Positions 50,878 to 53,485 of a stretch of 64,000 nucleotides of DNA are shown here, in pieces (positions within the stretch are counted from its first letter, which is position 1; each line of letters starts with the position of its first letter). The DNA is taken from positions 72,108 through 136,107 of the forward strand of contig JAKFXX010000007.1 of NCBI GenBank assembly GCA_021731145.1, in the 5' to 3' direction. The DNA is from Gammaproteobacteria bacterium (GTDB taxonomy: Bacteria > Pseudomonadota > Gammaproteobacteria > Ga0077554 > Ga007554). A model generated the notes under the pieces. It did no database searches. It saw nothing but the letters and a program-made list of their open reading frames with translations, and was not told the DNA's origin. The position numbers and the translations under genes are program-made.

Positions 50878-51117
50878 TAGTGCGCGTTACCGCGTTGATG
50901 GGTATCAGACAGGAAGCAGTCGTAGAATTTGAATCAAAGCTATCGGCTTATCAGGCAGCAGTCTGCCACGATCTTCTAGTCGCGCCGCACCTTTGGTTTT
51001 TCCAATAGCGGTCGCTCTGGCAGAAAAATCATAGATTGATCTTGCGCGTGCCAAGTCAGTTATTCATCCTTCGGTTTATCATAACGCCAAATAGAGATTT
51101 CGTTAGAAAGCGCTATA

Positions 51118-51494
51118 TGAAAATAATATCACTGCAATTGTCTAACATTCTGAGCTTCAGATACTTCGACAACGTTGGAAATGCCGAGAGCATCAGTTTT
51201 GATGATGATCTCAATATCATTATCGGGGAAAACGGATCAGGTAAATCAACGGCTCTGGAGGTCGTAAACTTCCTGTTCAGGCGCGTACTCTATAAACAGT
51301 ACAACCTCAATCAAGACCTATACACTCAGCGGAACAGTATCAACACTGATCAGCGCAAACAAATTCTCCTACCTGAGCATGTCGGCTGGCGGGTTTCATC
51401 AGAACATGCAAACCAGCAGTGGCAGGTAAGGCATCGCATATCGAGAAAAAAGCAATGTCAGAGCATGTGCGCGTGTCATGGGGCGGCTATTTAA
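51118..51494 (+). pseudogene. Truncated N-terminal fragment of an SMC/OLD/ABC-like P-loop ATPase
   Basis: MKIISLQLSNILSFRYF...LNIIIGENGSGKSTALEVVNF (Walker A). Recognisable sequence stops after about 90 aa near 51380. The rest of the ORF is unrelated read-through and collides with a convergent gene. Confidence 0.55.
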
Positions 51495-52503
51495 CAGCTA
51501 AAGCACGAACTATCATTTGCTGTACTTCTGTTGTGGCGTGAAGTGGGTTCAATTCAACCTCTGGGTGCGATGAAGCGAACACCCTAAAAATTTCGTCAGC
51601 AAAAGCTTGGCCGATTTCTTCCACTCCAGTGAAATCCAGAACTACAGTCTTGAATTTCTCAAAGCGAGATACCAGACGCTTTGCCTGTGAGCGTGAAACA
51701 AGCTTCTCACCTTCATGGCGAGCCAATCGAACCGGAACAATAGTTTTGCTGAAAGTAAATTCGTCTGGTTCAGAAAACTGTGCGTAGACCGAATTAAGCG
51801 TACGCTGGCTATCGTTATCCAGCTTCAATAACACGCGCGTCCCCGGAATATCCCTGTCGCCATCTATTAGCCAGTCACCCTGCTCTGCCATGTGCGAGAA
51901 ATTAAGCGTACGCGACATAATTACGAATGAATCAAAAGCCCGAGAGGTAAAAAATATACCCTCACCAGAATGGTTGGCTGGATCTGTTGTGAACTTTCCT
52001 TTTGCCAGTTCCAGGATCGCCTCTCTAGCATCGTAAAGTTTTGCTAGCCGTTGAATACGATAAAAAATGCCTTCCCCGTCATCGTTAATCCAAATCTCTA
52101 CATCGAGCGCGGTGCGTTCGAAGTGAACCGTAAGCATAGTCCCTTCGGAATGATCTATGGCATTATTGATCATCTCCGTGACGCCGTAATGCCACATATT
52201 GCGCACATTTTCTGGCAGGTCGGCCAGGAGTGGCGCCAGCTTTTCAAGCCAAACTATATCCTCCCTCAAGCCAGCCAAGGGGAATTCCCAAGATTTCTCA
52301 ATTAATGGGATAAGCCATGAAGCCTTTATGTTTCCTTTGCCAGAAGAACTAATCAACTTTTCGCTCTCAAGAGCGTGAAGATGACGGCTTGCGGCTTGCT
52401 TTGAAATGCCAAAATGCCGTGCTGTTTCAGAAGCAACATTGCGCGCCTTGTTTCGGCACATTTTCAGCATGAATTGTCTAATTTCGGATGTTTTCGTTCT
52501 CAT
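51487..52503 (-). CDS. wHTH + GHKL (SpoIIAB-like) ATPase + STAS-like DUF4325 fusion protein
   Basis: N-terminal HTH ARHFGISKQAASRHLHALESEKLI. N-box EMINNAIDHSEG. G-box-like HSGEGIFF. C-terminus VVLDFTGVEEIGQAFADEIFRVF is typical of DUF4325. Confidence 0.7.
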   Translation of the reverse strand: MRTKTSEIRQFMLKMCRNKARNVASETARHFGISKQAASRHLHALESEKLISSSGKGNIKASWLIPLIEKSWEFPLAGLREDIVWLEKLAPLLADLPENVRNMWHYGVTEMINNAIDHSEGTMLTVHFERTALDVEIWINDDGEGIFYRIQRLAKLYDAREAILELAKGKFTTDPANHSGEGIFFTSRAFDSFVIMSRTLNFSHMAEQGDWLIDGDRDIPGTRVLLKLDNDSQRTLNSVYAQFSEPDEFTFSKTIVPVRLARHEGEKLVSRSQAKRLVSRFEKFKTVVLDFTGVEEIGQAFADEIFRVFASSHPEVELNPLHATTEVQQMIVRALAVK

Positions 52504-52563
52504 GGCTCGTCAACAAGATATGTATCCTCCGGCAAAGCCGGGAGGCTCCGCAAATGAACACTA

Positions 52564-52616
52564 TCGACAACAATTTTACACTATATCGACAACATTAGAA
52601 GAATTTTTCGACAACA
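52564..52616. promoter_or_regulatory. Three direct repeats of tcgacaaca at exact 22-bp spacing
   Basis: Copies at 52564-52572, 52586-52594 and 52608-52616, lying 60-115 bp upstream of the minus-strand start at 52503. Confidence 0.5.
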
Positions 52617-52717
52617 TTTGAAGTCCCGTAGAAATTTGGCGTCAAACCGCCCAATCTCTTGGTAAAGCTGTTCTCTGAAATAAAGCTGGATCTTCTATTG
52701 TGAGAATGTAACGCCAG

Positions 52718-53485
52718 TCATGATTTTCCGCCAAAATAACCCAACCGTGCGGAGAGCCGCTTTCCGGCGGTAATCGTCACTGCTATCCATTCGTCGCTGC
52801 GCCGCGCGATGGGTGCGGAGACCGATAGGCCTGCGACCATTTTGCCGCTGGCGTCCAGCACCGGAACGCCGATACAGCCGACGCCGGTTTCGGCTTCTTC
52901 GTTATCCAGCGCGTAGCCTTGTTCCAATGAGTGTTTTGCTTCATTCCATAGCTGCTCGGGCTGGGTGAGGGTGGTGGGGGTGTAGGCGGGCAGGCGGGTG
53001 CGCCGGGCATAGGCAAGGCAGTCTGTTTTTCCGTCAAATGCAAGAAACAGCTTGCCCACCGCCGTGACGTGCAGCGGGGCATGGCCGCCGATGACTTGTT
53101 CGACCCGGATCATCTTGTGGCTGGAGACCCGTTCCACGTAGACCACCTCATCGCCGTCGCGCACGGTGAGGTTCACTGTTTCACCCAGTTCGCTGCGCAG
53201 CCATTCCATAATCGGTAATGCCTCGCGTTTGAGATCCACCCGCTGCTCCACCCGGCTGGCAAGGCCGAGCAATTTGATGCCCAACCGGTAATGGCCGGCC
53301 TCGGTGCGCTCCACCAGTCCATGCTCGCCTAATGCCGCCAGTATGCGGTGCGCTGTGGAGGGGTGCAGACCGGTCTCGGCGGAGAGAATCTTCAGACTGA
53401 CGGGGCCGTGGCCTTGGGCGATGGCGTCCAGTAGCTGGGCCATGCGGTCTATGACTTGAATGGAGCTGGTAGTTTTTTCTTTCAT
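52718..53485 (-). CDS. IclR-family transcriptional regulator
   Basis: N-terminal wHTH IQVIDRMAQLLDAIA...LKILSAETGLHPSTAHRILAAL. C-terminal IclR effector domain. Size 255 aa. Confidence 0.92.
   Translation of the reverse strand: MKEKTTSSIQVIDRMAQLLDAIAQGHGPVSLKILSAETGLHPSTAHRILAALGEHGLVERTEAGHYRLGIKLLGLASRVEQRVDLKREALPIMEWLRSELGETVNLTVRDGDEVVYVERVSSHKMIRVEQVIGGHAPLHVTAVGKLFLAFDGKTDCLAYARRTRLPAYTPTTLTQPEQLWNEAKHSLEQGYALDNEEAETGVGCIGVPVLDASGKMVAGLSVSAPIARRSDEWIAVTITAGKRLSARLGYFGGKS

Follow-up and report, generated by a model that had tools for sequence, protein, structure and literature searches.

A clade-specific array of phased direct repeats as a putative autoregulatory operator of the uncharacterised wHTH-GHKL-DUF4325 protein family

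Introduction

Three identical 9-bp repeats, evenly spaced at about two turns of the DNA helix, stand upstream of a gene whose predicted product combines a winged helix-turn-helix (wHTH), a GHKL and a DUF4325 domain, raising the question of which protein reads them and with what effect on the gene. The locus lies in a stretch of 64 kb, hereafter the window. An initial sequence-only reading of this stretch had proposed an iteron-like operator array, most simply the autoregulatory site of the wHTH domain of the adjacent protein.

The question reaches beyond a single locus. Relatives of this protein account for at least 7,990 clusters at 90% identity (7,992 of 8,000 scored candidates at E ≤ 1e-3) and are encoded by at least 587 species-representative genomes. 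The wHTH-GHKL-DUF4325 architecture is therefore common, yet uncharacterised: our literature search on DUF4325 returned no study of these proteins, the domain being mentioned only in passing. A conserved operator would offer the first concrete and testable molecular handle on the DUF4325 family, comprising defined candidate binding sites, a predicted promoter and transcription start, and natural specificity classes that could serve as a recognition-code series. The array would also open a simple reporter route to the signal sensed by the GHKL and STAS-like domains, and would extend the CapK/CapS logic, where a kinase and a STAS domain control a repressor, to a fused single-gene form.

Results and discussion

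Three phased direct repeats in the window

The 9-mer TCGACAACA (TGTTGTCGA in the orientation of the gene) occurs on the plus strand in three exact copies (52564-52572, 52586-52594 and 52608-52616), with spacings of 22 and 22 bp. These are its only exact copies on both strands of the 64 kb, for an expectation of 0.36, and no inverted copy of the repeat was found anywhere in the window. The array is furthermore the sole exact 9-mer triple with equal spacing (10-40 bp allowed) in the whole window, and none of 300 windows simulated under a first-order Markov null with the same range of spacings contained such a triple. The copy number and the double 22-bp spacing first noticed from the sequence alone were thus confirmed, and the distance to the minus-strand start codon at 52503, announced as 60-115 bp, was measured at 61-113 nt. 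TRF found nothing over the repeat region because only the 9-13 bp core repeats, and Rfam gave no matches at E ≤ 1 between 50500 and 52800. The repeat region is AT-rich, with a GC content of ~42-47%. On the strand opposite to the gene, a 71-aa ORF (52406-52621, +) spans the gene start and all three repeats; it is most likely spurious.

Domain organisation of the encoded protein

The downstream ORF (51487-52503, minus strand) encodes 338 aa, starting at an ATG (52503-52501) that closely follows an in-frame stop; its homologues share the N-terminus MRxKTSEIR. Pfam assigned DUF4325 ('STAS-like') to this product at E=1e-15. HATPase_c_2 scored 25.4 bits, just below its cut-off of 27.4, and the wHTH profiles also remained under their respective cut-offs (in brackets), with HTH_20 at 20.7 (27), HTH_5 at 18.9 (22) and MarR_2 at 17.1 (27). 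Among NCBIfam models, an ArsR subfamily scored 23.3 (cut-off 55) and SdpR also matched, below its curated cut-off. The AlphaFold2 model (pLDDT 80) displays a winged HTH over residues 1-75, followed by the GHKL domain (~81-230) and by a small alpha/beta C-terminal domain, the STAS-like domain (~268-338). Foldseek placed the GHKL domain closest to SpoIIAB, with 1til, 1l0o and 1tid as top PDB entries (probability 1.0, TM 0.71-0.75, best 0.74). The N, G1 and G2 boxes of the Bergerat fold are present and invariant across 52 homologues, through E110, N113, N114, D117 and H118 in the N box, D141, G143 and G145 in G1 (D141xGxG), and G180 and G182 in G2 (G180xG). The HTH-GHKL-DUF4325 architecture anticipated from the translation therefore holds, by the Pfam match to DUF4325 together with the modelled wHTH and SpoIIAB-like GHKL domains.

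Modelled alone, the C-terminal domain (residues 257-338; 51490-51735, minus strand) also reached a pLDDT of 80, with STAS only among the weak matches: comparison of the isolated DUF4325 domain with PDB folds gave no significant match (stressosome at E=0.14, prestin STAS at E ~0.6). Sequence searches for relatives of solved structure returned nothing significant, either for the full protein or for the C-terminal domain. On a manual alignment, the position of the phospho-serine of SpoIIAA and CapS, at the N-terminus of helix 2 of the STAS fold, would be occupied by Gly/Gln in the family (invariant I-G-Q-x-F, IGQAF in the window), with no Ser/Thr; an invariant SRSQA motif lies one helix before this position. 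Finally, PADLOC yielded only generic HTH matches (CasR, Csa3), indicating that the window protein is not a catalogued defence protein.

Promoter layout and a fourth site

Together with the three exact repeats (O1-O3), the upstream region carries predicted promoter hexamers, a degenerate fourth repeat (O4) and a leader insertion (Table 1), none of which figured in the sequence-only reading.

Table 1. Coordinates of the predicted operator, promoter and leader elements upstream of the wHTH-GHKL-DUF4325 gene, given as positions in the window
Feature	Position	Strand	Evidence and context
O1, distal repeat TGTTGTCGA	52608-52616	-	Exact copy; GTTGTC core invariant in the 12-locus alignment A2; a short way upstream of the -35
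Predicted -35, TTCTAA	52595-52600	-	3/6, weak in this genome; positional homologue of TTGATA/TTGAAA/TTGTAA in L007/L001/L006
O2, repeat	52586-52594	-	Exact copy; core invariant in A2; first 9 nt of the 16-nt promoter spacer
Predicted -10, TAAAAT	52573-52578	-	A2 columns T55, A56, A59 and T60 90-100% conserved (TAnnAT)
O3, repeat	52564-52572	-	Exact copy; conserved in A2; directly after the -10, over the predicted TSS (~52566)
Leader insertion of ~35 bp with GC-rich hairpin CCTCCCGGCTTTGCCGGAGG (52526-52545)	52516-52551	-	Missing from 11/11 other clade-A loci in A2
O4, degenerate repeat TGTTGACGA	52507-52515	-	One-mismatch copy; overlaps the ribosome-binding region, 12 nt upstream of the ATG
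338-aa wHTH / SpoIIAB-like GHKL / STAS-like (DUF4325) gene	51487-52503	-	ORF, Pfam, homologues and AlphaFold2; presumed binder of O1-O4

Scanning for promoters called exactly one sigma-70-like promoter on the gene strand of each of three orthologous loci (L007, L001 and L006), with 10-11 of 12 matches. It consists of TTGATA, TTGAAA or TTGTAA, a spacer of 16 nt, then TATAAT or CATAAT, and occupies the homologous place in all three, with O2 within the spacer and O3 abutting the -10. The promoter at the homologous position of the window was not called, because the hexamers there are TTCTAA, which is weak, and TAAAAT; the predicted transcription start, 7 nt past TAAAAT, is placed from the geometry of this -10. 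The sites hence overlap the core promoter of the gene that encodes the wHTH protein, as is seen for operators.

The window departs from its orthologues in the leader. The insertion separates O3 from O4, leaving them 57 bp apart and out of helical phase, versus 22 bp in the orthologues. Its hairpin is unique within the window, and the predicted fold of the 5' leader has a z of -1.8. Given this insertion and the weak -35, the proposed autoregulatory circuit of the window may be altered, retuned or degraded, though the ORF is intact.

Conservation of the array in orthologues

If the repeats serve the adjacent gene, they are expected upstream of its orthologues, where they were indeed found with the same motif. 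TGTTGTCGA recurs at 21-22 bp phasing upstream of orthologues (60-89% protein identity) that belong to a dozen or so distant bacteria, from Sulfurimicrobium, Gallionellaceae, Sulfuricella, Novimethylophilus, Coxiellaceae and Legionella to Chlorobium MAGs (where the motif is TGTTGTCAA), other proteobacterial MAGs and two metagenome contigs. The repeats of these orthologues are located at ~-79/-57/-35 from the ATG, with a fourth degenerate TGTTGACGA-like copy near -12; at L006, they lie at -75/-54/-32/-10, the fourth copy following O3 by 22 bp. The iteron-like array of the sequence-only reading stands for its three exact phased copies, whereas the orthologues have four sites and the likeness to iterons is one of geometry only.

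Alignment A2 (12 loci) revealed that the GTTGTC cores of the three sites are invariant and that the TAnnAT between sites 2 and 3 is nearly so, whereas the DNA upstream of site 1, between the sites and past the stop codon is not conserved among the clade-A loci. Sites conserved along with the gene, in flanking DNA that is not, are what an operator would leave behind.

Viral and metagenome contigs were also scanned for two copies, with the pattern TGTTGTCGA-N12/13-TGTTGTCGA. Among the 184 matches listed, 163 had a 21-nt spacing, most being coding heptad repeats or chance, and only L149 and L256 were true loci, each combining the gene with three copies spaced 22 bp apart. Arrays of TGTTGTCGA with no DUF4325 gene nearby were observed on other metagenome contigs (L156, L193, L199, L237 and L238, as well as L186/L191 and L222); they comprise 3-4 copies at 11-bp phasing in a conserved context, and also non-coding-looking 21-bp arrays.

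Phased arrays and motif classes across the family

The survey was extended to 80 family loci, 79 of them with enough upstream DNA, an array being defined as an 8-mer, with up to one mismatch, that occurs three or more times at intervals of 20-23 bp within 200 bp of the start. Most of these loci are MAG contigs, and start codons in the distant ones were assigned heuristically. Phased arrays were detected at 52 of the 79 loci, compared with 4/790 dinucleotide shuffles and 5/505 other windows of the same loci (~0.5-1%), and 2-3 more degenerate copies are visible at most of the remaining loci.

The operator motif varies by clade, all copies within one locus changing together, and each motif class comes with its own helix 3 and wing. 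Class A, the clade of the window, associates the motif GTTGTCGA with SKQAASRHL...GKGNxK; class B associates CTTTACRWTT, i.e. CTTTAC(G/A)(T/A)TT, with SRQ(A/S)ASAWL...GVGRGV; class C associates TTGACAAT with SRQxxN...G(S/T)T(R/K)AR. Smaller groups (ACTGTCTAT, ATGTTTACTA and TTTACCAT) have helix 3 and wing variants of their own. Covariation of this kind would be the expected signature of a cognate protein-site pair rather than its proof, the classes being clades in which shared descent is a confounder. In addition, all motif classes resemble -35 hexamers (TTGACA, TTTACA, TTGTCR), and part of the repeat conservation could be due to promoter function.

The genes around the locus are not conserved: the largest cluster of neighbours is present at 7 of the 80 loci, and neighbourhoods range from serS/PhdYeFM-PIN to type I RM/transposase regions. 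Nor is there any enrichment of the core 8-mer elsewhere across the 93 kb of flanking DNA from the orthologues. The array and the gene are thus the sole conserved unit, and the absence of any conserved neighbour leaves the gene's own wHTH as the only constant candidate binder.

Several clades display particular arrangements. The repeats of the largest family clade (L017, L022, L029, L031, L035, L037, L049, L061 and others) lie exactly 22 bp apart at ~-60/-38/-16 from the ATG and differ by position: the distal one is CTTTACGTTT, with a -35-like TTTACG, the middle one CTTTACAATTAA, with a -10-like TACAAT, and the proximal one CTTTACGTTTAA. Operator repeats therefore appear to double as promoter hexamers in this clade, with an 18-nt spacer. 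At the class C loci L030, L046, L047, L067 and L071, TTACAAT constitutes the degenerate last repeat, ~8-12 nt before the start codon, which suggests that the mRNAs of this clade have a very short leader or are leaderless. Two paralogous cassettes of a single Desulfarculus MAG (L032 and L044) have identical HTH regions and the same TTGACAAT class of operator, so that cross-regulation between the copies is possible.

A putative operator for negative autoregulation

Taken together, we regard it as likely that the encoded wHTH/GHKL/STAS-like protein represses its own gene through O1-O4, which would make up an operator of tandem direct repeats. Predicted binding by the adjacent wHTH protein, already the simplest proposal in the sequence-only reading, gained support from the orthologue arrays, the overlap with the promoter, the covariation with the HTH and the lack of a conserved neighbour. 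From the repeats, their conservation, their register with the promoter, the covariation and the self-standing unit of gene and array, we infer the identity of the binder, the sign of the regulation, the stoichiometry and the response to a signal. Each site of ~9-13 bp (AWTGTTGTCGAWA) would accommodate a single wHTH of the encoded protein, and protomers placed every 21-22 bp, about two turns, would line up along roughly the same side of the helix. Since the repeats are direct and not inverted, the protomers should be arranged head to tail, an order in which their bulky GHKL and STAS-like portions could touch. Occupation of O2, in the spacer, and of O3, over the -10/+1, would then exclude RNA polymerase and repress the gene. 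If SpoIIAB/SpoIIAA and CapK/CapS are a guide, a signal may act through the ATP-binding GHKL domain and the STAS-like domain to modulate DNA binding or oligomerisation, which makes these two domains candidates for both the lateral contacts and a signal-dependent release. Against this arrangement, SpoIIAB-type GHKL proteins are usually symmetric dimers, and such dimers read inverted repeats more often than direct ones.

A more far-reaching version of this scheme, possible in our opinion and rather doubtful, would make the solitary wHTH/SpoIIAB-like kinase/STAS-like fusion a widespread and self-contained one-gene switch, whose protomers would polymerise in head-to-tail order along 3-4 direct repeats with an exact spacing of 22 bp. 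The repeats of most clades would then be the -35 and -10 hexamers themselves (e.g. CTTTACGTTT / CTTTACAATTAA), operator and promoter forming one reiterated element, and the clade-specific helix and wing variants would amount to a recognition code insulating the cassettes from one another. Such a switch would govern no operon: its output would be the protein itself, a kinase/ATPase released from its own promoter, within a circuit that would sense stress or phage as a fused analogue of CapK plus CapS.

The preferred reading, a negatively autoregulating operator, has to be weighed against other origins for the repeats. Promoter architecture as such, i.e. reiterated -35/-10-like or UP-like elements or tandem promoters with no dedicated repressor, would account for the TTTACG or TTGACA (-35-like) and TACAAT (-10-like) contained in class B/C repeats, for a 22-bp phasing that amounts to a spacer of 17-18 nt, and for the agreement of TTGTCG with TTGACA at 4/6 positions. 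In the clade of the window, however, the -35 and -10 that were called sit outside the repeats, in the stretches between them; the conserved unit of 9-13 bp is clade-specific, longer and more specific than sigma-70 hexamers, and copies stand downstream of the -10 and at the RBS, where they have no promoter role, all of which makes this explanation unlikely. An operator for another host regulator, either the upstream IclR-type protein or a global factor, is suggested by the IclR-family gene that ends at 52718, ~100 bp upstream. The array nonetheless travels with the DUF4325 gene through unrelated neighbourhoods and phyla where no neighbour is conserved, and its motif follows the HTH of that gene from clade to clade; IclR proteins, besides, typically read palindromes. 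We therefore hold a foreign regulator to be quite improbable.

The position of the array near the edge of a ~1.8-kb low-GC island, the integrases and RM genes near some homologues, and a 22-bp phasing typical of plasmid iterons could point instead to replication iterons, a centromere-like partition site, or the recombination or transposition ends of a mobile element. Against such functions, the island is without a Rep, Par, transposase or integrase gene, the window contains no inverted repeat copies, tblastn of the protein against 72,556 plasmids and 50,697 phages found nothing, and at every locus the array keeps the same place with respect to promoter and start codon, so that we consider them very improbable. 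Transposon ends or an att site in particular were ruled out, there being no inverted copies in the window, no tRNA, and no recombinase in the island. As for chance similarity, which the AT-rich composition of the intergenic region (~42-47% GC) might favour, the simulations (0/300) and the conservation of motif, copy number and spacing across orthologues reduce its probability to almost nothing, the comparative data already refuting it.

Relation to known systems

CapK/CapS are the closest described relatives of the window protein. Along with VapKSC, they are kinase-STAS regulators of bacterial immune operons, in which CapK, an HTH-STAS-GHKL kinase resembling SpoIIAB, phosphorylates CapS, a STAS-wHTH repressor that binds its own promoter and that of the immune operon, autoregulates, and, as a dimer, recognises TTAA palindromes (Chambers et al., EMBO J 2026, PMC13373217). 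The window protein has the same blocks (HTH, SpoIIAB-like GHKL, STAS-type) and a comparable predicted autoregulatory logic, and both are found near RM and defence genes. By contrast, it is a single chain whose order, wHTH-GHKL-STAS-like, is not the HTH-STAS-GHKL order of CapK, and its operator would consist of 3-4 direct repeats at 22 bp instead of TTAA palindromes. The canonical STAS phospho-serine position also differs, being Gly/Gln (IGQAF) by manual alignment. Furthermore, capK and capS are two genes upstream of an effector operon, whereas neither a capS nor an operon follows the window gene, the next ORF being a truncated AAA_15 one that converges on it; across the 80 loci, neighbours are not conserved either. 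DUF4325 genes have also been found coupled to a VapC/PIN subgroup (PMC5499597), which is consistent with a kinship of the STAS-like domain.

The separate parts of the protein also have counterparts. Its GHKL domain best matches SpoIIAB (TM 0.74), has the N/G1/G2 boxes and precedes a STAS-like domain, which recalls the SpoIIAB/RsbW-SpoIIAA/RsbV partner-switching modules; here, however, these parts and a DNA-binding domain make up one chain, there is no evident partner among sigma factors, and the isolated STAS-like domain gives only weak, non-significant STAS fold matches. With ArsR/SmtB and MarR regulators the window protein shares an N-terminal wHTH, weak ArsR, HTH_20 and MarR matches, and a candidate operator over its own promoter. 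Its profile scores are nevertheless all below curated cut-offs, the winged-helix topology being present in the model, and these regulators are small one-domain sensors, to which the window protein adds the GHKL and STAS-like domains. ArsR/SmtB and MarR families bind inverted repeats as symmetric dimers.

Direct repeats occur in other systems. Plasmid Rep initiators (RK2 TrfA, pSC101 RepA, F RepE, P1 RepA) bind iterons at ~22 bp through winged-helix domains set head to tail on one face, and iteron arrays are linked to autoregulation of the adjacent rep gene. The array shares this phasing (22/22 in the window, 21-22 bp in the orthologues), but its setting is chromosomal, with no Rep protein, origin features or plasmid context; its conserved core measures only 9-13 bp, against about 17-22 bp for iteron repeats, and its sites alternate with the promoter hexamers in front of the presumed binder's own gene. 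ParR/parC and omega of pSM19035, repressors of plasmid partition or copy control, likewise use phased direct repeats over the promoter of their own operon, with cooperative binding and autorepression. They resemble the present case in having multiple phased direct repeats that span the regulator's own promoter, and differ from it as ribbon-helix-helix proteins with periods of 7-11 bp, whose sites double as centromeres, no par genes being present here. On these grounds, the array would seem to belong among known tandem-repeat autoregulatory operators, within a widespread and uncharacterised protein family.

Genomic surroundings of the window gene

The gene lies within a low-GC (~45%) stretch of ~1.8 kb (~50900-52717) between flanks of ~60% GC, bordered by a class II ribonucleotide reductase pair and by the IclR-family gene. 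Besides the gene, this stretch contains only what is left of the 5' part of an AAA_15 (AriA/PtuA/GajA-like) ATPase gene, an AAA_15/ABC-type ORF (51036-51494, +) that retains the N-terminal ~125 aa, is truncated, and converges on the stop codon of the wHTH-GHKL gene. Its real start is probably the ATG at 51117, its best PADLOC matches are AriA, PtuA and GajA, and it looks like a defence-gene remnant. An exact look-up of the IclR protein, aimed at strains without the low-GC island, returned no match.

A remote fifth site within the remnant, at 51166 (TCGACAACG), was considered and is taken as chance, the core 8-mer being at or below chance both in the window and across the 93 kb that flank the orthologues. 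The surrounding segment (51165-51186, TTCGACAACGTTGGAAATGCCG) matches O1 and its flank (52607-52628, TTCGACAACATTTGAAGTCCCG) at 18 of 22 positions, which is probably a coincidence. Finally, one of the loci (L081), taken from an assembly of a public read set, matches the window at 100% identity and represents the same genome, and a near-identical partial protein is labelled Gallionella sp.
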